A stretch of DNA of 64,000 bases, from positions 3,747-67,746 of the forward strand of contig JAUYTV010000017.1 of NCBI GenBank assembly GCA_030694985.1, written 5' to 3'. The DNA comes from Methanoregula sp. Its GTDB lineage: Archaea; Halobacteriota; Methanomicrobia; Methanomicrobiales; Methanospirillaceae. Shown piece by piece: positions 6,403 to 21,211 of the stretch. A program made the translations under genes and the position numbers. Below the pieces are notes generated by a model. The model had not been told where the DNA came from. It searched no databases and was given only the letters and a program-made list of their open reading frames with translations. Position 1 is the stretch's first letter. The number at the start of each line of letters is the position of its first letter.

Positions 6403-6588
6403 ATTCCAACACCAGATAGAGACTGGAGTCAGTAAAAAGCCTTACCATTTATCACTCCTTCTTCCAGGTTTAACAGGAATGGGGTCGTTCTGCCCTGTAA
6501 TTACCCGGGGGTGAAAAATCCCCCAGATAAAAGTTACCGAATGAATTTTGTTAAAGCCGGGAGGATAATAAAAAAAGAAAAAAAATGC

Positions 6589-6834
6589 TTATCGCCTTAC
6601 GCAGAAGTAACCGCCGCGAAGATGGTGCTTTGTAAAGAGCTCGCACGCCGGGCAGAAGCAGCCGATAATTTTCATCGATGTTGCCGATGACTGCCCGCGT
6701 GAGCAGAAGAGTTCGGTGGGCTGGTATTTTTCAAGCGAGTGATGCTTGTAGTTCTGGCAATTCGTGCAGTACTTCCTGCAGAGCTGCCGGTTCTCTTCGT
6801 TATCCTCAACAACCGGTTTGCTGGAATCAATCAT
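6589..6834 (-). CDS. DUF2769-like small Cys-rich (putative metal-binding) protein
   Basis: Pattern CxxxCxxCxxY...LFCxxG...CxCxxC...GGYFC. Confidence 0.75.
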   Translation of the reverse strand: MIDSSKPVVEDNEENRQLCRKYCTNCQNYKHHSLEKYQPTELFCSRGQSSATSMKIIGCFCPACELFTKHHLRGGYFCVRR

Positions 6835-6905
6835 GCTCTATAGGGTGAGCGGTGATGGATAATAGATTTTTTTAATTGTGTTTTTCTGGTTAAAAAAAAT
6901 GACTA

Positions 6906-7148
6906 CTACCAGACGCAGAAGTATCCGATGTTAAGATGGTGCTTATTGAAGAGTTCGCAGGCCGGGCAGAAGCAACCGATCTCTTTCATTGCCGGGGCGG
7001 GTGACTTTTTTTATGCGCAGAAGAGTTCTGTGGGCTGGTATTTTTCAAGCAAATGACGCTTGTAATTCGGGCATACTTTACATTACTTCCTGCATATCTG
7101 CCGGTTCTCTTCTGTATCTTTTATCGTATCTTTGCGGGGATTTATCAT
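6906..7148 (-). pseudogene. degenerate tandem paralog of the DUF2769-like gene
   Basis: Manual translation MINPRKDTIKDTEENRQICRK*CKVCPNYKRHLLEKYQPTELFCA*KKSPAPAMKEIGCFCPACELFNKHHLNIGYFCVW; colinear with 6589-6834, two in-frame TAA stops. Confidence 0.85.
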
Positions 7149-7175
7149 GAAAAAGAGGTAGGTGATGATGGCTAA
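7043..7175 (+). repeat. 133-bp direct repeat, copy 1 (copy 2 at 10729-10861)
   Basis: TTTCAAGCAAATGACG...GATGATGGCTAA; 132/133 identical, one mismatch T7121 vs C10807. Confidence 0.95.
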
Positions 7176-7327
7176 AATTTTTCGTTTCTATACGTTACCT
7201 TTAAAAAAAAATTTACTTCTGACTGGATTACATCACTGCAGTAATTGATTATTTTCAATTTTTGATTCCAGAGGAAAAAGATATCACCAGTAACATACAG
7301 TCTTTATAAAAAATAGAACTCCGGAAG

Positions 7328-8704
7328 TTGGTCCTTACGATATCAGTTCTCTATGTCGATGATGAATCAGGCTTGCTTGAAATAGGTAAAATCTATCTTG
7401 AGCAGACAACCGAATTTGCCGTGACCACTGCACTATCGGCGTCTGCTGGACTCGACCGGTTAAAATCTGATGGGATTCAGGCTATTGTTTCCGATTACCA
7501 GATGCCGGGGATTGATGGTATCGAGTTTTTAAAACAGGTCCGGGCAACCGACAAACATATTCCCTTTATCATGTTTACCGGTAGAGGCCGGGAAGAGATC
7601 GCTATCGAAGCCTTTGAAAACGGTGCAGATTTTTATCTCCAGAAAGGGGGAGAACCCAAATCGCAGTTTGCCGAGCTTGGGCACAAGATTAAGGCAGCAG
7701 TCGAACACCAACGATCGACGACGCAGGTCACCACCCTCAACCGTCTCTACACGGTGCTTTCCGCAACCAACAAGGCAATCGTTCGTATTCATGATAAAGT
7801 AGAACTGTTAACTGAGATTTGCCGGATTGTTGTCGATGACGGCGGCTTTGCGATGGCATGGGCGGGTCTTGTCAATGGTAAAAAACATCTCATCGAACCA
7901 GTTGCGGCATATGGACATATTGATGGGTACCTTGACACGATCGCGATATCGACTGATGATTGTCCACGGGGGCGGGGTCCAACCGGAACCGCATATCGTG
8001 AGAGAACATTCGTTGTGTGTAACGATATTAAAAACGATCCAATGATGGCACCGTGGCGTGAAGGGGCGCTCGAACGAGGCTACCGTTCACTCGCCGCATT
8101 CCCCTTTGCAATTGATACCAGAAATGCCGGTGTTATTACTTTGTATGCTCCAGAACCGGGATTTTTTACTGACCAGATCATACGGCTTCTTGATGAACAA
8201 TCCGGGGACCTTTCATTTGCTTTTGTTACTCTTGATCACAAAGAGCGACGATTATCTGCCGAAAAAAATCTCAAAACCTCAGAACTCCAGTACCGCCGCC
8301 TTTTTGAAACTGCACAGGATGCAATCCTGATCCTCGATGGGGATACGGGTGAAGTTATCGATGCAAATAAATTTATTCTTGATATGCTGGGATACCCGCT
8401 TTCGTATTTTCTTGGCAAACATCTTTGGGAACTGGGGTTCATCAAGGACAAATCCATTGCCCAGCAGGCATTCAAGGAGCTAAAAACGATTGGCTATATC
8501 CGGTACGAAGACATCCCGCTTGAAAGAAAAGACGGGAAGAATTTTAACGTCGAATTCATCAGCAATGTCTACCTTGTCGATGATAAAAAAATTATCCAGT
8601 GCAACATCAGGGATATCACTGACAAAAAAGTTGTTCAGGATGCATTGCAGGCAGGGGGGAGTGTAAAAGTGATGACAAAGGGGTTCGATTCATCCCGTGA
8701 CTAA
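7328..8704 (+). CDS. REC-GAF-PAS signalling protein, probably a C-terminally truncated hybrid histidine kinase
   Basis: VLYVDDE, VSDYQMP and FTGRG (REC); GRGPTGTA..GYRSLAAFP (GAF); YRRLFETAQD..CNIRDIT (PAS); ends after DALQA with unrelated residues and has no HisKA/HATPase. Confidence 0.85.
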   Translation: MVLTISVLYVDDESGLLEIGKIYLEQTTEFAVTTALSASAGLDRLKSDGIQAIVSDYQMPGIDGIEFLKQVRATDKHIPFIMFTGRGREEIAIEAFENGADFYLQKGGEPKSQFAELGHKIKAAVEHQRSTTQVTTLNRLYTVLSATNKAIVRIHDKVELLTEICRIVVDDGGFAMAWAGLVNGKKHLIEPVAAYGHIDGYLDTIAISTDDCPRGRGPTGTAYRERTFVVCNDIKNDPMMAPWREGALERGYRSLAAFPFAIDTRNAGVITLYAPEPGFFTDQIIRLLDEQSGDLSFAFVTLDHKERRLSAEKNLKTSELQYRRLFETAQDAILILDGDTGEVIDANKFILDMLGYPLSYFLGKHLWELGFIKDKSIAQQAFKELKTIGYIRYEDIPLERKDGKNFNVEFISNVYLVDDKKIIQCNIRDITDKKVVQDALQAGGSVKVMTKGFDSSRD

Positions 8705-8908
8705 AGGCAAGGGTTTTCTCGACCCCTTTACCTGAGATCATAACAACAAATATTCCAGACCTTTCCTATGAGCACGATCATTACCTGCATGGCATTTTTA
8801 AAACGGGGAGCTCATGAAAGGTAATGTATGTTTTGTTGATACAGTCTGCTGGATTGCGACTTTTTTTTGATCCGAAATTTAATAATGTGTCCTGCTGTAG
8901 TCTATAGT

Positions 8909-9172
8909 ATGACTCAGGCAATTCATCACCCCCACGATCAGGATCTGACCGTACGGAGGGGAAAAGTTCCTAAGACCACTATCCAGGTTACCCTTCATAC
9001 CAAGGATTACCTGGATAAAATCAAAGAACAGTCTGGCATCGAGACCTATGAACAGGCAATTCTGTTCCTGATACGCGAGCGACGGAAACATCTCCCGTCG
9101 TCATTCGGAAAATTACCTGGCATCGGTCATTTTACCCGCGAGGAGGATGATTCTCATCGGATTCGTCATTGA
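8909..9172 (+). CDS. vapB: putative VapB-type antitoxin
   Basis: Small protein with TTIQVT..TYEQAILFLI..SSFGKLP; overlaps the downstream PIN-domain gene. Confidence 0.7.
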   Translation: MTQAIHHPHDQDLTVRRGKVPKTTIQVTLHTKDYLDKIKEQSGIETYEQAILFLIRERRKHLPSSFGKLPGIGHFTREEDDSHRIRH

Positions 9173-9539
9173 TACGTGGGTCTGGGTTGAATATTATCTC
9201 GGTGAAGATTCACGTGTGAACGAGTATATTGAAAATGACAGCATCGACTTGTTCACATCCACAATTACCCTTACCGAAATGATAAAATTCCTTCATCAGA
9301 ACCACGAGAATCCGGAGAATATCTCCCATGTTGTTTCAGAGATCGGTATCAGGAGTCTTGTTATCCCGGTGACGGAAGATATAGCCATTCTTGCCGGTGA
9401 ATTCAAAAATGAGGGATTCAAAGGCGGGATTGCCGACACCATCATCCTCGCAACAGCCCGATCCGGGGGTCATAAGGTGGTCACCGGTGATCCCCATTTC
9501 AAAGCGATATCAGACGCCGTGTTCCTTAAAACCGGCTAA
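9147..9539 (+). CDS. vapC: VapC-type PIN-domain toxin
   Basis: VIDTWVW, TSTITLTE, GIADTIILATA and VTGDPHF carry the PIN acidic residues. Confidence 0.9.
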   Translation: MILIGFVIDTWVWVEYYLGEDSRVNEYIENDSIDLFTSTITLTEMIKFLHQNHENPENISHVVSEIGIRSLVIPVTEDIAILAGEFKNEGFKGGIADTIILATARSGGHKVVTGDPHFKAISDAVFLKTG

Positions 9540-10373
9540 CCTTTTTTTTTAATCCGGGAATATGGTTACCTAAGTGACGGCATTTATGCCGGATCTGTGA
9601 GAGCTGGAACCGGGTTTCAATATCACAAGCGATGATTACGCCCCCGCAAATGGATTTTTTATGAAAAACGAAACAATATTTGTAAAATCCAGTCAGGTTT
9701 ATCTTCTTTCATAAAGAGGTAATCCCAGGGTTTTCCGGTACTCGGGGTTGTGGTTCGTCATCTTTGAGAAAAAGAATGATTTGACGTTATTTATCCTTAC
9801 AACAAGTACCTGTATAATACCGCACGTGTGGATGGAGAGAGTCCCCAGGATCGGAAATTTTGCCTCACGCTGTCATCCATAAGTAACATACTCCCTGAAG
9901 AACAATACATGCAATCCCCGTAGATCAGTTTCACTACTATGCCAACACCACACCAATCCCTTAAACACATTTGTATACCAGATATCGGTCGGTTACAAAT
10001 TTTCCCGATCCTTTTTTGGTACTCAGAAGGTAAAAAATTCCCGGTCCTCTCTGATATCCTTGTGATAAATTTCCCCACTTTTAAAAAAAGCAGGTACATT
10101 ATTTCAAAAGTTGTTCTAAAATCTGCTTTCTGATACAGATCTTATAAAAAATCCCTATTCCATATTTGGAAACGGTGAGGACAATTACCGTTTAAAAAAA
10201 TCATCCGGGCTGATTCAGGCTGATAAGGTTATTGTCCGGAACTGTGGGAAAAGAAGAAACTGTGTCAATGGCAACTTCACAATCGGAAAACCAGGTCCGG
10301 TTCTCTGTCTTCTGATGGGATATTGGATGTGCCCGGTCCTGCAACCAACCCATACAGTGGCCAGTGAACAGAG

Positions 10374-10689
10374 CTAACAATGTGGAGCGTGAATGCAATG
10401 CATGGAAAAAAGGCACAAATCATCATTCTCGTCTGCGTCTCCCTCTTTTGTGCGAGCGGGTCCCTTGCCAACTCGTTTATTCTCTGAAACATATCTGGGA
10501 ATAAGGGCATGAGTGATATCACGGAGTGCATCTATCTCGACGTCTCGTTGATCGAGGGCTTCTTTGTCAACGCAGAACAGGAATTTCCAGCACCAACCTG
10601 TACATCACTCTGAACAAGGTCCAGAATCCTTTTTTGACCTACTCGTTTTTCCCAAACGCCTCGATCGCTGTATCAACGATAACCATCAT
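10374..10689 (-). pseudogene. degraded gene fragment, probably from a mobile element
   Basis: MMVIVDTAIEAFGKNE*VKKGFWTLFRVMYRLVLEIPVL, frameshift, DKEALDQRDVEIDALRDITHALIPRYVSEN; part of it matches 49336-49379. Confidence 0.35.
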
Positions 10690-10728
10690 TGCCTTACTGC
10701 AAGGAAGATCCCGGGTGAAACCACACAC

Positions 10729-10861
10729 TTTCAAGCAAATGACGCTTGTAATTCGGGCATACTTTACATTACTTCCTGCATATCTGCCGGTTCTCTTCTG
10801 TATCTTCTATCGTATCTTTGCGGGGATTTATCATGAAAAAGAGGTAGGTGATGATGGCTAA
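10729..10861 (+). repeat. 133-bp direct repeat, copy 2; contains the 5' part of the DUF2769 pseudogene
   Basis: Offset exactly 3686 nt from 7043-7175; carries the same premature TAA. Confidence 0.95.
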
Positions 10862-10910
10862 CAGGTTTTTTTAATCATATTTTCCTTATCAGCCGTGCCT
10901 TAAACAAAAA

Positions 10911-12539
10911 TTATGAGGTAGTCTTCACAAAGTCTGCCTTGACCCACGGGTGTTCGAACATCACCATATATACGCCTGTGACAGTGCCCCCATTTCCGGT
11001 GGTGAATTTCACCGCAGTCCCGGTCCCCGTCTCACGGAACGTGTCCCCGTCATAGGGCACAAGGAAAAACGGCTCTGTGAGGTGGCCGGCATACAGCCGG
11101 AGCCCGCCCGTGTCCGGTTCAACCCTCAGTGTGCCGTAATAGTCCTGTGAGTACGAACCCTGGTAGGCTGTAGCGGGCCGTGATGGTTGTGCACCAGCCG
11201 GTGCTGGCGGGAGTTGTTCGAGAGGACCGGCAGCTGAGGCACCGGGTTTCATTGCAGCGGCAACCCCTGCCTCAATCTCGCTGTACCAGTCTTTCTGGAC
11301 CGCCCCGGTAAAGTACAGGTCATCCCATCCATTGATCACCGCTTTTTTGAGAATATGCCCGCCCGGAAATCCATTGGTCAGGACAACAATTGCCATCTTC
11401 TCTTCAGGATATAATGTGATGTACGTGGAGACCCCGCTGGTCAGGTCACCGCCATGTTCAACCCGTATCCTCCCTTTCTCTGCAACAGATTCCCAGCCGA
11501 GGTCATAGGCCGTGATACTGGTGCTGGTAGTCTTCATGATGTTCTGGGGGCGGTGGGTCTCTTTGAGAGCTGCGGCATCAATGACCTGCTTTCCATCAAT
11601 ACTTCCGTCATTCAGCTGGAGCCGGGCGTATCGGGCCATATCATTGATCGTAGAACTCACACCTCCAGCGGGACTGTTCACGTCATCGTTTAAGAGCGGA
11701 CCTGCCACCGGTGTCCCGTTCATCATCGAGTAGGTATCCACGCGGTCAGCAGCGTTCTCAAAGTCAGCGAACCGTGCGCTCGTGTTCTTCATCCCTGCGG
11801 GAACTATCACCCGTTCGGACACGAGATCCTCCCATGACATCCCTGCTTTCCTTGCGGCTGCTTCTGCTGCCAAAGTTATGCCGATGTTTGAATATGCATA
11901 GGATGAACGGTAATCTCCCGTAAGCGGTACGAGGCGGAGTTTGTTGATGATCTCAGAGCGGTTGTACCCGATGTCCTGGAGTTCATCGCCGGCATAGGCA
12001 GGAAGTCCTGTCCGGTGCATGAGAAGGTCGCGGACAGTGACATGGTCGGTTATCCACGGGTCGGAGAGCCGGAAGCCGGGATACAGGGGAACAACCCGGT
12101 CATCCCACGAGAGTTCTCCCCTGCCAACCATGGACGCGATCGATGCGGATGCGAATGTTTTTGAGATCGATGCGAGCTGGAACCGTGTGTCAGGACCGAC
12201 CGGCTCTTTTGTCGTTAAGTTCTTGACCCCGAACGTACGGAGGTAGATGACAGAGTCATTTTTTACAACCGCAACCGCCATTCCCGGGACTTTGCTTTTA
12301 CTGAAAAGTTGTCCGGTATATGCATCGAATTGCGGGATGAGGCTGGCAATGTTTTTTTCCCCGTTGCTGCCGGTCAGGGTGTTCACGGACCGGGTTTCTG
12401 GCGGCTGGTTCTGGGGGGACAATACACATCCGGCTAAAAGGATCATGCAGAAGAGACCTGCGATGATAAGTAGTATTGCGGGTTTTTTGGAAATGATATC
12501 AACTTCCTGCTTTTGAATCATAGTATCGTTTACCGGCAT
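10911..12539 (-). CDS. exported serine hydrolase of the class C beta-lactamase/esterase family with a C-terminal DUF3471-like domain
   Basis: Lipobox-like ILLAGC; SxxK in FQLASISK; YxN in YAYSN; HGG box; LLMHRTG. Confidence 0.9.
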   Translation of the reverse strand: MPVNDTMIQKQEVDIISKKPAILLIIAGLFCMILLAGCVLSPQNQPPETRSVNTLTGSNGEKNIASLIPQFDAYTGQLFSKSKVPGMAVAVVKNDSVIYLRTFGVKNLTTKEPVGPDTRFQLASISKTFASASIASMVGRGELSWDDRVVPLYPGFRLSDPWITDHVTVRDLLMHRTGLPAYAGDELQDIGYNRSEIINKLRLVPLTGDYRSSYAYSNIGITLAAEAAARKAGMSWEDLVSERVIVPAGMKNTSARFADFENAADRVDTYSMMNGTPVAGPLLNDDVNSPAGGVSSTINDMARYARLQLNDGSIDGKQVIDAAALKETHRPQNIMKTTSTSITAYDLGWESVAEKGRIRVEHGGDLTSGVSTYITLYPEEKMAIVVLTNGFPGGHILKKAVINGWDDLYFTGAVQKDWYSEIEAGVAAAMKPGASAAGPLEQLPPAPAGAQPSRPATAYQGSYSQDYYGTLRVEPDTGGLRLYAGHLTEPFFLVPYDGDTFRETGTGTAVKFTTGNGGTVTGVYMVMFEHPWVKADFVKTTS

Positions 12540-12799
12540 TTCTTTATTGCGATAGTAATCCTATTCGCAGGTAGTCCCACGCATGATTCCGGCAATAATC
12601 CTTGCAGTGCCTGATGATTCGCTGGCGTTGAGCCGTTCAAGTTAAGAGTGATATTAAACCGGATCCTGATGCCTTCCTGAGATATGCCGGTCCATGGATC
12701 GCAATTTCTGGTATCCTCAAGAAACCCCAATGTCCGGCTCCTGACAGGATCCAGGAGATAAAATTCCCGTTGAACCCTGACGGGCTAAAAAAAAATGGT

Positions 12800-14026
12800 T
12801 TAGGGAAACCGGACTACCGCATTGTTCTGCATCAGCCGGTTATTCTGGGGTACTGCCTCTGGGAAATACGTGACAAAATCGCCAAATTCAGTCCATAACT
12901 GCTTTAAGGAATAATCAGGAGAGGACATGCGCTCTGATCCACGGGTCTCACTGACTTCTCCCGTCACATTGAATGAGCGGTACACATGGGGATAACCCTC
13001 GGCACCCAGGAACGAGGGGATGTCTGTTACAACCTGGAAATGGAGGTGCGGAATATCTGAATTCCCGCTGTTGCCCATCAGGCCAAGCACCTGACCCTCT
13101 TTGACAATATCTCCGGTCTTTACCCGGACTGACCCGTTGACCATGTGGGCATAGCAGGCATATTTCTTATTCCCGAGATCGATGATAACATAATTTCCTG
13201 CCGCATTTGCCAATGTGGTACCCGCAGCGGAGTAGATCGTTTCAAAATCTGCGAGGCCATCGGAGGCATCCACAATCGTCCCGTTTGCAACCGCAAAGAT
13301 CTCCTTGCCAAACCCGAGATAATTTCTTGCGAGCGTTGCATTGCCAGATGTGGCCTGCCCGCTCACCGGGTCCAGGTAAACCCAGTCCTGTGCGAACCGC
13401 TGGGGAACACGGGTCACATTGTTCATGGTGATCTGGGCACGGAAATGGTGGGTCAGGGGAGATGTGGTCTCCATAACCATCCAGCCCGGGCCTTGCATCG
13501 GCGAACCTACGACCACCGGTGCCAGATTCTTCTTTACGGCAACTTCCCCGCCATTAATGATTGAATGGGGCAGACCGTCAGCAGTCCGGTTAAGGGTGAG
13601 CCGGTGGGAGAGCTGGTCCGGCACAGCATCAGGGCTGACCACAAACCAGAGCGATACCCGGGGCAGGGAAAGTTTTCCTGTACCGTTACGGAGCTCAGCT
13701 GCTGTTGGTGGGGGGACAGATGCCGGGTGGTACATGGCAGAGAGCAGTTCGCCATCTGCGGTATAGAGGATCTTTCCTGTGGCCGGGTTGAGGACTTCTA
13801 CCTTTTCTACAACTGGTACCTGACCTTTTGCAGGCACAAGTTCAAGTTCATACGCAAGGTTGATCCCGTTCTGGCTGGGGACCGAAATTGGCCCAAATGG
13901 CACGGCCATCTTAAGGGCAGGGATCATAGCAGGTGTCTGCTGCACGGCTGCCGGCTGCATGCATCCGGGACCCAGAACTGCTGCAATCATAATAATGGTG
14001 ATGAGGAACTTTGCAATCGCAGTCAT
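12800..14026 (-). CDS. exported M23-family metallopeptidase
   Basis: Signal ending VLGPGC; GNYVIID..YAHM..VKTGD.VKEGQVLGLMGNSGNSDIPHLHF; QRFAQD. Confidence 0.9.
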   Translation of the reverse strand: MTAIAKFLITIIMIAAVLGPGCMQPAAVQQTPAMIPALKMAVPFGPISVPSQNGINLAYELELVPAKGQVPVVEKVEVLNPATGKILYTADGELLSAMYHPASVPPPTAAELRNGTGKLSLPRVSLWFVVSPDAVPDQLSHRLTLNRTADGLPHSIINGGEVAVKKNLAPVVVGSPMQGPGWMVMETTSPLTHHFRAQITMNNVTRVPQRFAQDWVYLDPVSGQATSGNATLARNYLGFGKEIFAVANGTIVDASDGLADFETIYSAAGTTLANAAGNYVIIDLGNKKYACYAHMVNGSVRVKTGDIVKEGQVLGLMGNSGNSDIPHLHFQVVTDIPSFLGAEGYPHVYRSFNVTGEVSETRGSERMSSPDYSLKQLWTEFGDFVTYFPEAVPQNNRLMQNNAVVRFP

Positions 14027-14095
14027 AGTGATAACATCCGGTTGTTGGTGTAGCAGAAAATAAAATGATGTATCTGAAATCCAAACAAAAAAAAA

Positions 14096-15613
14096 TTATG
14101 GTACCTGGGCCCGCGAGAACGGGCCGATCTCCATTGAGTCAAATCCGGTGACTGCTGCCAAAGTGTTGTTCTTAAAAGTGAGATAACCCACCTGGTCGTC
14201 CGGGTTAGGGAACGAGAAGTACCAGGTATTCTCATTCACGTGCATAAGCGTGCCGGGGTACTTGTCCGGGCCCAGCTGGAACGTCATGTTCATGGCATCA
14301 GCACCTTTGCTCACCAGCATCGTGCCGTACAGGTCGTTCCTGTACGCTCCAGCGATAGCCAAAGGATCGATTGTTGCAGGCTTAGCATCTGCGGGACGTT
14401 CTACGGATTTGATGAGCGAGTTCCACCCTGCCTGGTTGAGCTTTTCCCGGGCCTGCAGATCTATGCCGCTCTTTCCTATGTACCGCTCAAGGAACTCGTC
14501 CCTGATTGCTTCGGGAAAGACCGTCAGCTGCTTGTTGGCGATGACAACAAGACCGCTCTTCTTTCCGGGGATAAGGATCACGATCGAGCGGATGCCGTCG
14601 AGAGCACCGTTCTTCTCAATCACCCGCTCGCCAAGGAAGTTATAAGAATCGCAGCCAAGGCCGACTGCCCCGTTTAAGTCGTTTAAGGGCCCGCTGTGCG
14701 GAGCAACAAGGCTTGCAGCATGGATCTCCTTTACGGTCTTTGGTGTGAGTACCTGCTTTCCATCAATGGAACCATTGTTTAACATCATCCGCAGCCACCG
14801 GGTCATGTCCCGGCCAGTTGAGACCACCTGGCCGGCAGCAGGAAATCCTGCTTCTTCGAGCGGTATGATGTGAACATCCCCTATGGTGCCTGCATGGCCT
14901 GAGACATGGTTGTCATCAATGTACAAGGTCTGTGGGTGGGCTCCTGACCGCGTCATGCCGAGTGGCTTTAGGATCCGGACATCGGTTAAGTCCTCCCAGC
15001 TCCGGTTGTCTGCTTTTGCCGCAGCTTCCCCAGCAATGAAGAAACCTGCATTCGAGTAAATGTACTTTTCCCGGAAACTGGTACCAGGTTCTAAGTAACG
15101 CATCCGCACCAGCATATCACTGTTCGAGTACCCGAGCCTGCCTAACAGGTCTCCATCAAAGTGCCGGAATCCCGTGCGGTGGGCGAGCAGGTCACGCAGA
15201 GTTGCATGCTGGCCTGCGTAGCTGTCTTTTAAGGTAAAGCCCGGCAGGTACGTGACAACCGGTGTGTCCCAGTCCAGTTTCCCCTCATCAACAAGGGAGC
15301 CGACCGCTCCGGCAGTGACGTATTTGGAGACTGATGCGATCTGGAAACGGGTGTCTGGATCTACCTTTTGCGGTTTTCCCAGTTCCCGGACTCCAAAACC
15401 TTTCAGGTACACAACAGTGTCGTTCTCTACAATTCCCACAACTGCACCCGGTACTTCATATTCAGCCATTTTCTGGGAAACAAAATTATCAAAGCTGTCA
15501 GATTTTTCCATCGTCTTCTGATTCGTGTTTGTACATCCGGCACACAAGACCATGCCGGACACAAGAAAAGCAGCAAGAAGCAGGAATGCGAATCGCAGGG
15601 GGGGATTTTTCAT
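14096..15613 (-). CDS. exported serine hydrolase of the class C beta-lactamase/esterase family
   Basis: Signal ending VLCAGC; FQIASVSK (SxxK); YIYSN; KNG box; paralogous to 10911-12539; start placed at ATG 15613. Confidence 0.9.
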   Translation of the reverse strand: MKNPPLRFAFLLLAAFLVSGMVLCAGCTNTNQKTMEKSDSFDNFVSQKMAEYEVPGAVVGIVENDTVVYLKGFGVRELGKPQKVDPDTRFQIASVSKYVTAGAVGSLVDEGKLDWDTPVVTYLPGFTLKDSYAGQHATLRDLLAHRTGFRHFDGDLLGRLGYSNSDMLVRMRYLEPGTSFREKYIYSNAGFFIAGEAAAKADNRSWEDLTDVRILKPLGMTRSGAHPQTLYIDDNHVSGHAGTIGDVHIIPLEEAGFPAAGQVVSTGRDMTRWLRMMLNNGSIDGKQVLTPKTVKEIHAASLVAPHSGPLNDLNGAVGLGCDSYNFLGERVIEKNGALDGIRSIVILIPGKKSGLVVIANKQLTVFPEAIRDEFLERYIGKSGIDLQAREKLNQAGWNSLIKSVERPADAKPATIDPLAIAGAYRNDLYGTMLVSKGADAMNMTFQLGPDKYPGTLMHVNENTWYFSFPNPDDQVGYLTFKNNTLAAVTGFDSMEIGPFSRAQVP

Positions 15614-15701
15614 AAGAGGGAGTTGGATTTTATCATAAAAAACATTGCCATTTGTAGACCGGTCTTTTGCTAAGGGAAAAAGCAAAAAAAATGAGTATTT
15701 G

Positions 15702-17237
15702 TTAACCGGTCATTATTGACGGAGTAATATTGATATCCAGAATACGGCCCTGCTCCCGTGTGTATTTCGGCCAGGTCACATTCATCCCTCCATTCGGGTT
15801 TCCGGTCTTTGCAAACCGGGTCCAGAGATCTACGATATTGGCAGCCACTGATGGATCTGCTGGAACCGGCACGCCGAATAACAGGAGGGTTTCGCTGCCA
15901 TGGAACGCCCCGTCGGACTGATTCGGCAGGATATAGCTGTAGCGGTACACATATGTGTCCGGGCTGATGTCTCCCATCGAGCCTGCCGCAAACTTTACCG
16001 AGTCACTAAAATCATAGTCCGTCATGATTTGTGCCAGCCGGAGCTGGACTTCGGCAGTTGAGTTGGCAGGATATTTTGCTAATACTGCATCCGCATCCTT
16101 GCCGAAATAGCCCCGGATGAATGTTGTGTACTCCGGAACGGTCATGTTGGCATTCGCAGAGAGCGTTGTCCCGTCATTGGCATTGCTACCGATCATGAGG
16201 GGGACCGGGTTTTCCTTGTGGCTACCGAAAAGAGAATCAACGGAATCGGGGAGCAACCATCCGTCAATTGTTGGCTCGAAATGCAGGGTATGAGTAAGCT
16301 CCCATGAGGATGATGGCCAGGGAGTGGCATTGATCAATTGTTCGGTACTTAACGTTCTCATCCGGGCAATCGCACCCGGCCCTGAATATCCGAGGCTTTT
16401 TGCGTATTCAATGCCAAACTGTTCAGCGTCAGATTTTGAATGAACATTATCGATAGTGGGACCGTTCGCCCAAAAAGGACCGCTTTCGACAATTGCCTGC
16501 TGATAAAGTCCTTTGCTCTGGGGGCTGACCAGATGAATAAGAACACTCTCTCCTCCAGCTGATTGCCCGAAAATGGTCACCCGGGACGGGTCGCCGCCGA
16601 ATGCTCCGATGTTTCGCTGGACCCACTTGAGGGCTGCCTGCTGGTCCATCAGCCCATAATTGCCCGAGCTGTTATTTAGGGACTCAGCGTCCAGCTCCGG
16701 ATGGGCAAGGAACCCGAGAGCGCCAAGCCGATAATTGGTTGTGACAACGATAACACCTTTCTTTGCAAGGGTAGTCCCGTTATAGAGTGCAATTGTGTCA
16801 AGCGGAGCTACCGTTCCGAATGCCCCGCCATAGAAAAAGACCATAACCGGTAGTTTTTCATCCGCACTTTTTGCCGGGGTCCATACATTGAGGTACAGGC
16901 AATCCTCGCTCATGTTAGGAACATAGGATCTTGTGACCGGCTGGGGAGGTTCCGCTGAAAACACTTTTGCTTCCCTAACACCGTCCCAGGGTTTGACCGG
17001 CGCGGGAGGTTTCCAGCGCAGGTCACCGGTTGGGGGAGCTGCGAACGGTATCCCGTGGTAGACTCGCAGGCTTCCCTGTTGAATTCCAGAAACCGCGCCG
17101 GCATCGGTCTTCACAACACCGGATATATTTGCTACACCGGGCTCTGATCCATTATGGGTACACCCTGCCAAAAAAGAAAATCCTATAAGAATCAGGCAGC
17201 TTATCAGAGCACAACTTGTCAGTTTATTTGCTAGCAT
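15702..17237 (-). CDS. exported type-B carboxylesterase
   Basis: Signal ending FLAGC; GIPFAAPP.GDLRW, SEDCLYLNVW, GQSAGG nucleophile elbow, FHGSE. Confidence 0.93.
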   Translation of the reverse strand: MLANKLTSCALISCLILIGFSFLAGCTHNGSEPGVANISGVVKTDAGAVSGIQQGSLRVYHGIPFAAPPTGDLRWKPPAPVKPWDGVREAKVFSAEPPQPVTRSYVPNMSEDCLYLNVWTPAKSADEKLPVMVFFYGGAFGTVAPLDTIALYNGTTLAKKGVIVVTTNYRLGALGFLAHPELDAESLNNSSGNYGLMDQQAALKWVQRNIGAFGGDPSRVTIFGQSAGGESVLIHLVSPQSKGLYQQAIVESGPFWANGPTIDNVHSKSDAEQFGIEYAKSLGYSGPGAIARMRTLSTEQLINATPWPSSSWELTHTLHFEPTIDGWLLPDSVDSLFGSHKENPVPLMIGSNANDGTTLSANANMTVPEYTTFIRGYFGKDADAVLAKYPANSTAEVQLRLAQIMTDYDFSDSVKFAAGSMGDISPDTYVYRYSYILPNQSDGAFHGSETLLLFGVPVPADPSVAANIVDLWTRFAKTGNPNGGMNVTWPKYTREQGRILDINITPSIMTG

Positions 17238-17748
17238 ACGATTGCATCCCCATTTTTTTAATGGAAAAACCGGGTGATGGCATGAGTGAAGCAGATCTTT
17301 AGCGGATCCCGCAACTACTTTTCATTAATAAATACCCGGCATTTTTTTTAAAATATTACGCTTCGACACATTAACGCTTTGTATCTGCCTGTGTCAGATA
17401 ATTTATTTTCAAACAGGGGAAAAGGCCTTGCCACTTTTTATATCTCACAATGATACCAGACGAAAGTTTCCATTTTTATGTTCCACCTTGGCAATTTTTT
17501 CTGAGTTGAGTCCTTTCATACGTTCTTCTGAAACCGTGACGCTGGTCTACACCGACCCACGGTTGCACAATCGCGCTATTACCGGAAATGAGTTGTAATT
17601 AAACCGGTCTGTATCGGGTTCACATTACAAGGGCAGTCCTTAACCGGTGAAACATAGATTAATGAGCTCAAAGATTCTTATTCTCCATAATTATCCGGGG
17701 TACGCACGAAAAACGATTGCAGCAGAATCCATGAACTGGATGAAAAAC

Positions 17749-18426
17749 ATGAAGTTTGCACGATTCTCTCTTTACACCGTGGCAGTTATTATTATTTTTG
17801 TGCTCTTCAGCGGGTGTCTTGACAGTCCGGCTATCAGCTCTTCCGGGAGCAGCGGAACGGGTTCTGGTTCATGCAAATCCGGTTATGCCAAATATACTAC
17901 AAGCCAGGGACATTGCTGTCCGACCGGGTATCCGTATTACTATGACGGGAAATGCCACTCGTGTTCGGAAGGGTATAATAAATACAGCACGAGCGCCGGT
18001 TACTGCTGCCCGGTAGGGTACACACATTATTACAACGGTAAATGTCACCAGTGTTCTTCAGGATATTACAAATACGACACAAGCGCTGGTTACTGCTGTC
18101 TGTCAGGGTACCCGTATTACTATGGCGGTAAATGCCATTCGCAGTCCTCGGGTTCTTCTTCAGGTTCTAACACCGTGATTGTATACAATGTTCCGGTGGA
18201 TGACCGTACCGGCTGCCCCGCCCAGAAGGACCTGCAATGTTCCGGATGGATAGCCGCAGGCAGCTGCCAGATACAGTCATGCACCTGCTACTATAGCGGG
18301 CTTCATGGCGATACTACCGCTGCATATTATCACACATCGGATGGTGCGTATTTCCGGTGCAGTGGCGCCGGCCAGACCCTGAGTTGCATTGCCGCAGCAC
18401 AGGCAGCTGCACAGCATTGCCTGTAA
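17749..18426 (+). CDS. Cys/Tyr/Gly-rich exported lipoprotein-like protein with three 30-aa repeats
   Basis: Signal MKFARFSLY..VLFSGC; Ser/Gly linker; three Cys-rich repeats; Cys-rich C-terminal domain. Confidence 0.8.
   Translation: MKFARFSLYTVAVIIIFVLFSGCLDSPAISSSGSSGTGSGSCKSGYAKYTTSQGHCCPTGYPYYYDGKCHSCSEGYNKYSTSAGYCCPVGYTHYYNGKCHQCSSGYYKYDTSAGYCCLSGYPYYYGGKCHSQSSGSSSGSNTVIVYNVPVDDRTGCPAQKDLQCSGWIAAGSCQIQSCTCYYSGLHGDTTAAYYHTSDGAYFRCSGAGQTLSCIAAAQAAAQHCL
17872..18141 (+). repeat. three tandem 90-bp intragenic repeats
   Basis: Units at 17872, 17962 and 18052 encode CxxGYxKYxTSxGxCCxxGYxxYYxGKCHx. Confidence 0.92.
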
Positions 18427-18660
18427 TCTTAGACACAAAAAATGCTCAAGGTTACATTCTTCATCCCATTTTCATGTCGCTTTTTTTTAGCAGTTTTTTT
18501 ATGCGAAATAAACGAGGTGTCATTCATCCATACACATGTCATATCTCTAAACCTGAAATGCGGTGAAATTTAACATATTAAGGCGTCATTAAAAAAAACG
18601 GACGAAAATTTCCATCCGCATAAGATCATTTATAAAATTTAACATCTTACTCAATGGATA

Positions 18661-19749
18661 ATGAAAAAATGTCCCGATTGCGGCAGAGAAATATCCTTAT
18701 CAGATAGTGAATCTACCTCTTTTAAAAAAGTGGAAAAAACCCCTTTTACAATCCGGCAGTTTTTATGGGACAATTTTCGTTTTTTTACAATGATAGGGAT
18801 TACCGGAACCATGATCTCCCTGATACCCAATATGGGGACCCGGATTCTTGGGGCCACATGGATTACCGATACAGAGACTTTCCTTCCCTTGTTCCTTTCA
18901 ATAATCATTTTTTTTGGAGCAATTTTTTTAACTCTCTGTTTTTTAATTATATTCAGCCTGATAATCCAGGCAAGGGATTCTGAGAAGATCTGGAAAAAAA
19001 TTACTCTTCATAATAAAACTCTCATCATCTGGTATGAAGGTGATTTCCAGCGCACCATACTGCTTTTTTGTTTAGTGCCGATGTGGGTAGGCTTATTGCT
19101 GTTTTTTATCATGTTAATGCCATTGATTCCGAATAAATATTCATGGCTGTTTGCAACAATTATCGGGCTTACCTGTATTCCGCTTTTTATCTATTCATGT
19201 TTAGGCTGGAATATGGGGAAAAAAGTTACCGGACTTATTCCGGGAATGAGAAAATTTCCTCTTATAAGTGTAGTTGTATTCACGATTCTGGTAGTGGGTT
19301 TTTTCCTCATTTTACCCTTTGCAATCCCCCAGTTTTTTAATAATACGGATACTTTTTCCGGAGATATTAAAATCCGACCGGATCATCTGTATTTTTCCCC
19401 ACATCTTTCCTCAGTAAAAGGATTACGGTTAGAGATCACGAATTTGTCAGGCCGTGAATTACAGGCCAGCCGTCACATATGGTCGGCAAATTTTGGATAT
19501 TTCATCAGGGTTATTCCATCTACTTCTGAAGTAATAATACTGGGAAATCCCGTGGATAACCGGAATTCAAGGGATATTTACTGGACTTATTCACAAAATA
19601 ATCCAGAACAAGTGAAAAAACCAGTAAAAATTAATCTGCATCTCTATCCATTACAGGGAAATGAAGAGATTTCCAATTCTTCATTATACCTGACATGGTA
19701 CGATAACGATATTGTGTATGCCAACACCTCGTGTGAAACATATCAATAA
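18661..19749 (+). CDS. hypothetical polytopic membrane protein with N-terminal CxxC knuckle and soluble C-terminal domain
   Basis: 362-aa ORF; MKKCPDCG; about five TM segments; AT-rich. Confidence 0.75.
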   Translation: MKKCPDCGREISLSDSESTSFKKVEKTPFTIRQFLWDNFRFFTMIGITGTMISLIPNMGTRILGATWITDTETFLPLFLSIIIFFGAIFLTLCFLIIFSLIIQARDSEKIWKKITLHNKTLIIWYEGDFQRTILLFCLVPMWVGLLLFFIMLMPLIPNKYSWLFATIIGLTCIPLFIYSCLGWNMGKKVTGLIPGMRKFPLISVVVFTILVVGFFLILPFAIPQFFNNTDTFSGDIKIRPDHLYFSPHLSSVKGLRLEITNLSGRELQASRHIWSANFGYFIRVIPSTSEVIILGNPVDNRNSRDIYWTYSQNNPEQVKKPVKINLHLYPLQGNEEISNSSLYLTWYDNDIVYANTSCETYQ

Positions 19750-19873
19750 TTTTTAGACATGAAAAAAGAAAAAACCCGTTACCATTTCTCATATCTGTCA
19801 GATAGGAAAATTTACTGATAACTCCTCAAATCTTCCTGTAATAAACAATTATGACTGGCAGCAGGTTTCCGGA

Positions 19874-20308
19874 TCAGAGCGGCCATCTGCGTTTATGCCC
19901 GGACTCACAAAGCCCCTTGCACCGGTTGAAGTATGTCTCACCCCATATCCATGGCTGATAGGTGCAACACATATCAGGCTTCACGAGATGAATCCCGCAA
20001 AGGTACCGCCCCTTTGCTACGCGGCGCAGGAACGGGCAGACGGTGACATAATCACCGGTATCGGGATTTTGCATCTCTACAGACACAATGCTTCCGAGGT
20101 CGTCGGCCTTGAGGTCCGCACAATTTATTGGTGTGCTTTTTTCAATGAATGCAACAAACCAGCGCAGGATATCAGTCCGCCCCTGCTCTATCCATATGTA
20201 CAAGTTCGATGGTGTTGGTGTAATATTGGGGCCGAAGATCCGACAGCAGAGTCCGCACTGCTCACAGGGCTCATCTTCTGTTGCTATCTCATCCATTTTG
20301 GTTTCCAT
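19874..20308 (-). CDS. YkgJ-family CxxCxxCC cysteine-cluster protein
   Basis: CEQCGLCC ... CPFL ... YLCGIHLVKPDMCC. Confidence 0.85.
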   Translation of the reverse strand: METKMDEIATEDEPCEQCGLCCRIFGPNITPTPSNLYIWIEQGRTDILRWFVAFIEKSTPINCADLKADDLGSIVSVEMQNPDTGDYVTVCPFLRRVAKGRYLCGIHLVKPDMCCTYQPWIWGETYFNRCKGLCESGHKRRWPL

Positions 20309-20350
20309 CCACTATTCATCCAGTGTCGGGATAATTTTTGCCAAAAAAAA

Positions 20351-21211
20351 TTATTTGCCCAACGGGGACACATTCGTCCCGAGGAAATACAGGGCGTTAT
20401 TTCCGTACTCAACCGGTGCATAATGGGACCCGACATGCGGGAGTCCTTTAAACCGCACAAGCCACGAGCCATTGATCTGACCTGCCATCTGGACGGTAAC
20501 TGGCTCTGGAGTCAATACATCTGCGGTACCTACAACGAGCATGACATCTTTATTAATTCCGGAAAGATTAGCATAGGACCCGTTCCATATGAGGTTTGCC
20601 TTTGCCTCTTTGTGAACACCTTCAGACTGGGCAGGATTGACTGCATTGAATTCAATGGCATCGAGCAGTAGTTTTGTCTGGGGGATCCTGACGCTGTAGG
20701 TAACAGAATCGAGTACCAGCTTTCTTACACGTTCAGGGTGATCGATGACCAGCTGCTGGGCAATTGAAGATCCCATAGAGACACCGTAAACATGCATGCT
20801 GTCATAACCAAGAGCAGGCATGATTGCTGCAGCATCATCGGCGTACTGGGAGAGAGTTGTTGTCGAATTACTGTCACTGCTGTATCCCATTCCCCGGTTG
20901 TCAAAGGTATAGACATGGTATTTTGTGGCAAGGATGCCAATAAAAGTCTGGTTCCAGTTATTAATGGTATTGCCAAATCCCTGGATCATGAGGATGGGTT
21001 CACCGGACCCGAATTCCCGGTATCCCAGCGTCACACCGTTTACCTGTTTATACTGGACGGGAGTTGCATTGAACGATACGGTCGGAATCTGCTGGATTGC
21101 CACACTTGTGGTAGCGGGTTGTACGGTGCCAGAAGTACCCATACACCCCGCAGCAGCTAGCAGGCAGATAGTGAGTGCGATTGTAAGAATTAACTGAAGT
21201 TTCTTGTTCAT
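20351..21211 (-). CDS. exported alpha/beta-fold hydrolase
   Basis: Signal ending LLAAAGC; GSGEPILMIQGF, DNRGMGYS, GVSMG elbow, GTAD, GLPH. Confidence 0.9.
   Translation of the reverse strand: MNKKLQLILTIALTICLLAAAGCMGTSGTVQPATTSVAIQQIPTVSFNATPVQYKQVNGVTLGYREFGSGEPILMIQGFGNTINNWNQTFIGILATKYHVYTFDNRGMGYSSDSNSTTTLSQYADDAAAIMPALGYDSMHVYGVSMGSSIAQQLVIDHPERVRKLVLDSVTYSVRIPQTKLLLDAIEFNAVNPAQSEGVHKEAKANLIWNGSYANLSGINKDVMLVVGTADVLTPEPVTVQMAGQINGSWLVRFKGLPHVGSHYAPVEYGNNALYFLGTNVSPLGK

Follow-up and report, generated by a model that had tools for sequence, protein, structure and literature searches.

A cluster of predicted lipoprotein hydrolases in Methanoregula and the recurrent coupling of M23 to penicillin-binding-protein-fold peptidases in Methanomicrobiales

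A 64,000-nt stretch of DNA from a Methanoregula-like archaeon (hereafter, the window; positions 3747-67746 of contig C55 in a 2.49-Mb, 58-contig assembly of a genome that is 96% complete) carries a dense cluster of genes for lipobox-bearing exported proteins, the core of which is conserved among related loci: an M23 zinc endopeptidase together with serine peptidases of the penicillin-binding protein (PBP) fold, which belong to family S12 in this genome and are represented by S13 or fused S12 enzymes in other Methanomicrobiales. This order of archaea lacks murein. We propose, with a probability of roughly 0.45, that the tethered enzymes work at the cell surface, where they would process exogenous peptides that derive from murein or contain D-amino acids; both the substrate and the direction of benefit are what we infer. 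The six genes of the cluster are not one conserved unit, and the locus is a gene cluster, not a mobile island.

An earlier note on this DNA had placed six lipobox open reading frames (ORFs) in the region, and each of them is present at its position, on its strand and with the signal end assigned to it; the five hydrolase domains that the note had named are likewise all found by Pfam, the sixth ORF encoding a Cys-rich protein without a family. In what follows, L numbers denote related loci, G numbers sampled genomes (G000 being this genome) and P numbers homologous proteins, and all distribution counts refer to 151 evenly sampled Methanomicrobiales genomes. The closest relatives of this genome are uncultured Methanoregula represented by metagenome-assembled genomes (MAGs).

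Coupling of M23 to PBP-fold peptidases

In the window, the M23 gene (12800..14026, minus strand) is flanked by the S12 genes Bla1 (10911..12539, minus strand) and Bla2 (14096..15685, minus strand), and this association recurs elsewhere. Of 33 related loci, 13 have an S12 gene no more than 10 kb away from M23, as compared with about 2-3% expected for genomes of 2-3 Mb with 1-4 S12 genes each, these adjacency counts not being phylogenetically independent. Furthermore, in three loci (L011:8879-11191, L019:449-2770 and L021:8648-11122), the two domains reside in one polypeptide, a lipoprotein of 770-824 aa that contains both PF00144 and PF01551. A search with one such S12-M23 fusion retrieved 12 distinct 90% clusters (676-828 aa overall; P0423-P0433 among them), encoded on contigs of up to 313 kb with archaeal neighbor genes, and the fusions occupy two subclades of the M23 tree.

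In two instances, locus L028 and the complete genome of a Methanoregula (G081, locus L044), a second PBP-fold family takes the place beside M23, the adjoining gene encoding a lipobox S13 D-Ala-D-Ala carboxypeptidase; S13 partners reach 218 bits on PF02113 in related loci, and the family is found in 15 of the 151 genomes. In the nearest relative, the number of M23 proteins in the cluster rises to two and that of S12 proteins to three, and there is also a lipobox Asp/Glu racemase, the gene for which (L001:12926-13795, plus strand; PF01177, 6.6e-45) is located between M23 and Bla1. An exported cofactor-independent racemase would be unusual.

Several other observations touch on these families. A Peptidase_S13 (PBP4-type) match above the cut-off was also obtained in Methanosarcina acetivorans, a control genome, and thus, DD-carboxypeptidase homologs in murein-less methanogens are not limited to Methanomicrobiales. 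In six related loci (L009, L011, L014, L017, L020 and L022), M23 is found next to small lipoproteins with an sCache_2 domain (for instance, L009:11267-11824, L011:6499-7077 and L014:11325-11882), which could be ligand sensors or binders tied to the M23 module; multi-repeat versions are encoded in this genome as well (C23:182-1981 and C45:10970-11926). In other M23 neighborhoods, lipobox proteins of cysteine-peptidase fold are encoded (L028:13012-14568 and L030:5389-6123, both on the minus strand), the first with a core of the transglutaminase-like type (PF01841) and the second with a C39-like peptidase domain (PF13529).

The M23 protein

The M23 domain occupies residues 240-333 of the protein, with a Pfam score of 61 bits on PF01551 (cut-off, 28.7). 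Characterized M23 enzymes are overwhelmingly peptidoglycan hydrolases, and the title of a review on the family describes them as such (PMC9662197). The family of the Methanoregula protein comprises 565 clusters at E ≤ 1e-30, from which 107 diverse representatives were taken for alignment and for AlphaFold2 modeling. The resulting model (predicted local distance difference test score, pLDDT, 92.8; predicted template modeling score, pTM, 0.88) has among its top Foldseek matches in the PDB M23-fold proteins only, at a probability of 1.00, including ShyA, LytM, lysostaphin and Csd1-3. These matches, which cover the catalytic domain only, are bacterial cell-wall proteins, that is, peptidoglycan hydrolases and their catalytically inactive relatives such as EnvC, DipM and SpoIIQ. 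Neither Foldseek nor profile searches against the PDB gave a family or structural match for the N-terminal β-rich domain (approximately residues 38-160) or the C-terminal extension, which sets the archaeal protein apart from the bacterial M23 endopeptidases.

The archaeal protein shares with the bacterial endopeptidases LytM, lysostaphin, ShyA, MepM and Csd3 the catalytic fold, the HxH motif and the catalytic His, but differs from them in the first zinc-ligand motif, which is HxxxD in these enzymes of murein-containing hosts and probably H-x19-D in the protein of a host without murein. The canonical HxxxD motif is missing, the aligned position reading GFGKEIF, with neither His nor Asp. Instead, H194 and D214 (THHF...QRFAQDW) are at least 90% conserved among the 107 representatives, H294 (YAHM) and H327-L-H329 are invariant or nearly so both in the archaeal clade and among the representatives, and G21, C22 and H193 are further invariant residues. 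Because H194, D214, H294, H327 and H329 are conserved across the family, the site is likely to be intact in the form H-x19-D...H...HxH, with H194 and D214 probably acting as the functional equivalents of HxxxD. A second, short M23-domain ORF (250 aa; PF01551, 52 bits) is present in another lipoprotein-rich stretch of this genome (C34:32725-33018, minus strand).

The S12 proteins

Both S12 proteins match PF00144 over their catalytic domains, Bla1 with 206 bits (8e-61) and Bla2 with 205 bits (2e-60), followed by a DUF3471 domain that is clear at the C terminus of Bla1 (4e-10) and weak in Bla2. The motifs of the fold are recognizable as S124-I-S-K, Y216-S-N and H362-G-G in Bla1 and as S118-V-S-K and Y210-S-N in Bla2, the third motif of which is uncertain (KNG being a candidate). 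The best PDB matches of Bla1 by sequence are IS11 (7spn), which the title of the corresponding paper calls a carboxylesterase (PMC9972953), and Pab87 (2qmi), which matches its catalytic (PRP) domain at E 6.6e-21; the C-terminal DUF3471 domain matches 4whi only, and not Pab87.

In Pab87 of Pyrococcus abyssi, an S12 enzyme of an archaeon, D-stereospecific aminopeptidase and muropeptide DD-carboxypeptidase activities have been measured, and the enzyme has been proposed to process bacterial cell debris (PMC2651629). It is a PBP-fold CubicO peptidase with an extra C-terminal β domain and resembles Bla1 in its catalytic domain. However, Pab87 is a cytoplasmic, self-compartmentalizing octamer of PRP and lipocalin domains, encoded beside a dipeptide ATP-binding cassette (ABC) transporter (PMC2651629), whereas Bla1 and Bla2 carry lipobox export signals, are partnered or, in relatives, fused with M23, and come from a genome without an oligopeptide-binding protein. 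Compared with the bacterial PBP-fold DD-peptidases (Streptomyces R61, AmpH, PBP4/DacB and the D-aminopeptidase DAP of O. anthropi), with which the SxxK, YxN and HxG motifs are shared, the two proteins are archaeal and predicted to be anchored as lipoproteins, and their NCBIfam similarity to AmpH and DAP is weak. The AmpH and D-aminopeptidase equivalogs (NF007943 and NF009622) gave 92.6 and 75.1 bits and 68.7 and 61.4 bits, respectively, far below the cut-offs of 266 and 443, and were rejected as assignments, as was class C β-lactamase (NF033085; 103.5 bits for Bla1 and 79.4 for Bla2, with a cut-off of 415).

Orthologs of Bla2 (48-88% identity) were found in about a dozen genomes (11 of the 151), and four of the five that were inspected retain the lipobox. 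Recoding, suspected from in-frame TGA codons in some of these orthologs, was discarded, as the codons proved to be terminal stops over-run by the alignment.

Lipobox signals and clustering of exported proteins

A crude genome-wide scan for lipobox signals gave about 100 candidates, of which some 70 to 80 look convincing. The cluster in the window is the densest in the genome, with six true lipobox ORFs (seven including one false positive) in 10.3 kb, whereas every other interval of this length contains at most three; under random placement, six or more per interval were obtained in 11 of 5000 trials (p ~0.002). Judged by the lipobox consensus [LVI][ASTVI][GAS]C, the signal ends are canonical in Bla1 (MILLAGC) and in the type-B carboxylesterase COest (SFLAGC) and near-canonical in the α/β-hydrolase ABhyd (LAAAGC) and the Cys-rich protein (VLFSGC), and are atypical at position -3 or -2 in Bla2 (VLCAGC) and M23 (VLGPGC), the orthologs of which mostly have AGC or SGC.

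The lipobox Cys is invariant in M23 orthologs across several families of Methanomicrobiales and is retained in 115 of 120 archaeal M23 homologs and 111 of 120 COest homologs; in the wider M23 family, where the named sequences are bacterial, only 29 of 150 representatives have it. The proteins of the cluster are probably exported by the Sec pathway and predicted to be lipid-anchored through this Cys on the outer face of the membrane. Their n-region, h-region, [GAS]-C end and conserved Cys are those of the haloarchaeal lipoproteins, in which an archaeol thioether is attached in an AliA/AliB-dependent manner; lipid anchoring of such proteins has been established experimentally in Haloferax (PMC12462473), and only there. 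The predicted archaeal lipoproteome outside the haloarchaea thus gains a set of hydrolases.

Distribution and origin

The earlier note had treated the six genes as one co-conserved toolkit, a notion that the distribution of the genes does not bear out. The full cluster was found only in the nearest relative (L001, genome G076; 88-97% identity), with partial versions in L004 and L030. The full-length M23 family is present in approximately 27 of the 151 genomes and in 4 of the 13 sampled Methanoregula genomes, this one included, whereas COest is found in 17, many of them without full-length M23. Outside the cluster shared by this genome and G076, the two genes are never adjacent, being unlinked in G139, some 15 kb from each other in G065 and on separate contigs elsewhere. 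Likewise, the link that had been drawn to the acyltransferase-3 genes does not extend beyond this locus and L001, the only places where such genes lie near the cluster.

The named outgroups of the M23 family are all bacterial (Ignavibacteria, Deltaproteobacteria, Bryobacteraceae, Terriglobales and Pseudomonadota), and the Methanomicrobiales proteins form a monophyletic clade (Shimodaira-Hasegawa-like approximate likelihood ratio test [SH-aLRT] support, 100) on a long branch, with an internal order that roughly follows taxonomy. This topology points to an old transfer from bacteria, with vertical inheritance, duplications and losses thereafter. The subfamily is represented in one deltaproteobacterial MAG by a tandem pair amid housekeeping genes, with no PBP-fold neighbor. 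The G+C content (GC) of the hydrolase genes and that of their third codon positions (GC3) fall between the 32nd and 82nd percentiles of the genome and no integrase was found, so that a recent horizontal island was rejected; with an archaeal M23 clade that is old and approximately taxonomic, the pattern is the vertical one that the note itself had set against its proposal. Contamination of the MAG was also dismissed, given that orthologs are located on isolate chromosomes of 2.4-3.0 Mb and in archaeal gene contexts.

Proposed function and alternative explanations

The convergence on one gene of three separate families of murein-peptide enzymes (M23, S12 and S13) and, in one case, a racemase, the fusions, the conserved lipoboxes and the murein-less host order together are best accounted for by action at the cell surface on D-amino-acid peptides from outside the cell, whether murein-derived or other. 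In this scenario, soluble murein fragments or D-amino-acid peptides shed by nearby bacteria would arrive at the membrane surface, where M23 would cleave cross-bridge or endopeptide bonds and the S12 enzymes would remove terminal D-residues as DD-carboxypeptidases or D-aminopeptidases, in the manner of Pab87; the S33-like ABhyd may trim the products further, and free amino acids would be taken up through an ABC system of the LIV (branched-chain amino acid) type. Among the lipoproteins of this genome is a LIV-type amino-acid binding protein, which weakens a remark of the earlier note that a hydrogenotroph has no obvious nutritional need for such enzymes. Cultured Methanoregula need or profit from organic supplements.

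Of the envelope-directed surface toolkit that had been envisaged, the part that stands, on comparative genomic grounds only, is the export of predicted lipid-anchored enzymes of a bacterial-envelope type by a murein-less methanogen, given the repeated occurrence of M23 beside or fused with S12 or beside S13, and once with an exported racemase; the six-gene unit does not stand. The note had also left open whether envelopes are attacked or scavenged. Because the enzymes are predicted to be tethered and have no cell-wall-binding domains, processing of soluble fragments is favored over attack, and scavenging appears more likely than long-range killing.

Several findings weigh against this proposal. 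Pfam detected no peptidoglycan-binding domain in any protein of the cluster, and M23 is solitary in many genomes, such as that of Methanoculleus chikugoensis. The racemase of the nearest relative is absent from this genome, in which, at 96% completeness, we also found neither an SBP_bac_5 oligopeptide-binding protein nor a Na/Ala symporter, nor any murein amidase of the Amidase_2 or Amidase_3 families; full murein catabolism is therefore not encoded. In addition, the coupling statistic is subject to the shared ancestry of the loci noted above, and S12 enzymes, as well as α/β folds, can be esterases, as is IS11, the top structural match of Bla1. A route for D-alanine use through a Na/Ala symporter and alanine racemase was considered and set aside, there being no symporter and the PF01168 matches being weak and of uncertain identity.

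The esterase-capable folds lead to the alternative that survives best, although we consider it unlikely, namely, that the locus is a loose set of unrelated surface hydrolases acting on L-peptides or environmental esters (releasing, for example, acetate or amino acids), with the S12 proteins being esterases of the family VIII type. Such a set would fit the retention of the whole cluster in the closest relative only, the independent distributions of COest and M23, the existence of a second cluster of COest and α/β-hydrolase genes on contig C52, the resemblance of Bla1 to IS11 and of COest to broad-range esterases, and the presence of esterase-capable folds in four of the five hydrolases. It leaves unexplained, however, the adjacency of M23 and S12, the fusions, the S13 partners and the exported racemase, and is at odds with the peptidoglycan-hydrolase character of nearly all characterized M23 enzymes.

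Somewhat less probable is a bolder version of the proposed surface processing, whereby a membrane-tethered and sometimes bifunctional, single-chain M23 and DD-peptidase would cut the walls of contacting bacteria, such as syntrophs, harvesting D-amino-acid peptides or opening the partner envelope where the cells touch. If true, contact-dependent wall cutting would amount to a cross-domain cell-wall-editing function in methanogens.

Remodeling of the archaeon's own envelope by M23 and the PBP-fold enzymes, with S-layer or sheath protein or a peptide-containing polymer as the substrate, seems to us improbable. The anchoring to the producer's own membrane, the lack of peptidoglycan-binding domains, the long vertical history in Methanomicrobiales and the bacterial subfamily member among housekeeping genes would all be compatible with it. 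Yet the patchy occurrence (M23 in ~27 and S13 in 15 of the 151 genomes, and M23 in 4 of 13 Methanoregula) is that of an accessory trait rather than of envelope biogenesis, and we know of no D-amino-acid polymer in Methanomicrobiales.

We give still less credence to a contact-dependent antibacterial weapon or syntrophic-interface tool, in which tethered peptidases would breach the walls of bacteria in close contact with the methanogen. Bacteria-killing peptidoglycan hydrolases do exist in archaea, with an M23 enzyme among them (PMC12352652), the patchy distribution is weapon-like, and lysostaphin, zoocin and LytM are among the matches of the M23 fold; but a lipid anchor beneath the S-layer would limit the reach, the outer membrane of Gram-negative bacteria would shield the target, and neither a domain for cell-wall targeting nor an immunity gene or a delivery system is encoded nearby. 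Bacterial S12 resistance peptidases of the BogQ and TriF types are known, and an S12 fold with HxG as the third motif, together with a surface location, would suit the interception of membrane-active peptides, but D-stereospecific destruction of nonribosomal peptide antibiotics containing D-amino acids is very improbable here, as it accounts for neither the M23 partner, the fusions nor S13, and there are no antibiotic-related genes in the vicinity.

Archaeal handling of bacterial wall peptides, which we prefer as the function of the M23-PBP module, is in itself already known from Pab87 and from the secreted modular peptidoglycan hydrolases Woldo and Danwoldo of Halogranum salarium, which were shown to kill bacteria (Strock et al. 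2025, PMC12352652). As in Methanoregula, the haloarchaeal M23 is of bacterial origin, exported, patchily distributed and found in a murein-less host. The haloarchaeal enzymes, however, have PG_binding_1 domains and a Tat signal and are released into the supernatant, whereas the Methanoregula proteins have no binding domain, are predicted to be tethered through a Sec/lipobox signal and are coupled to PBP-fold peptidases. The survey in the same study required a cell-wall-binding domain, and its sole Methanomicrobiales entry is a GH108 enzyme (PMC12352652). Literature searches brought up no study of lipoproteins of the M23 or PBP-fold type in Methanomicrobiales, and no published description was found of a lipobox-tethered, non-modular M23-PBP module, of its natural fusions or of its spread over the order. 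The tethered, non-modular enzymes, excluded from the published screen by design, would thus widen the account of archaeal peptidoglycan hydrolases beyond secreted, modular haloarchaeal weapons.

Methanogens are usually seen as passive takers of bacterial H2, formate and acetate. The module suggests an undescribed way in which they might feed on or interfere with neighboring bacteria; if so, murein-less methanogens would chemically engage bacterial wall material as a nitrogen or carbon supplement, for partner management or in defense. The natural S12-M23 fusions are ready test objects, and cultured carriers include Methanolinea mesophila, Methanoculleus chikugoensis and Methanofollis formosanus.

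Other genes and organization of the cluster

The first four genes, Bla1, M23, Bla2 and COest (15702..17237, minus strand), are adjacent and in the same orientation, as had been noted, and are separated by 260, 69 and 16 bp; the third of these intervals becomes 88 bp if Bla2 begins at the conserved and likely true start, the Met at 15613. Directly after the M23 stop codon, a run of nine T residues (12787..12795, minus strand) can be read straight from the sequence; it is likely to act as an archaeal transcription stop at the end of a COest-Bla2-M23 unit, so that these three genes are probably expressed as one transcript and Bla1 is probably transcribed apart.

COest matches PF00135 along profile positions 3-501 of 515 (366 bits [365.8], 6e-109), has a GxSxG nucleophile elbow (GQSAGG), and is matched best in the PDB by fumonisin B1 esterase (8s6d) and pNB esterase. 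It is best viewed as an independently distributed esterase, though probably co-transcribed with Bla2 and M23 in this genome. The second esterase cluster (C52:5060-10315, locus L034) consists of three genes, encoding a C-terminally truncated lipobox COest of 363 aa that is 66-68% identical over its first 317 residues, an α/β hydrolase without a signal, and a full COest lipoprotein paralog (53-56%). Many Methanoregula homologs of COest (P0277, P0284, P0292, P0307 and others) are fusions of 820-839 aa with a calcineurin-like phosphoesterase (PF00149), and one homolog fused in this way has a PEGA domain.

ABhyd (20351..21211, minus strand), an α/β-hydrolase lipoprotein of the Abhydrolase_1 or S33-like type, matches PF00561 (79 bits, 5e-22) and PF12146 (3e-12), with the elbow GVSMG; S33-like α/β hydrolases recur near M23 or Bla genes in L001, L012, L030 and L049. 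The Cys-rich gene (17647..18426, plus strand; likely start near 17731) encodes a Cys/Tyr/Gly-rich repeat lipoprotein with no Pfam or NCBIfam match and contains a 90-bp tandem repeat in 2.5 copies (17914-18137); its orthologs adjoin Bla2 or M23 in L001, L004 and L030.

The cluster is interrupted by two genes outside the lipobox set. One, at 18661..19749 (plus strand), encodes a protein with a zinc ribbon and multiple transmembrane segments, without a Pfam or NCBIfam match; its GC of 0.373 is at the 1st percentile of the long ORFs of the genome, and the gene, which is conserved in L001 and L004, may have been inserted from a foreign source. The other, at 19874..20308 (minus strand), encodes a cytoplasmic CxxCxxCC (YkgJ-like) protein (PF03692, 9.7e-5). 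On the far side of Bla1, about 4.5 kb of the window (6403-10910) separates this gene from one for a small transmembrane protein and consists of a truncated REC-GAF-PAS gene, VapBC and degraded DNA; as only about 0.8 kb (L001:15563-16386) takes its place in the nearest relative, this stretch is an insertion specific to this genome.

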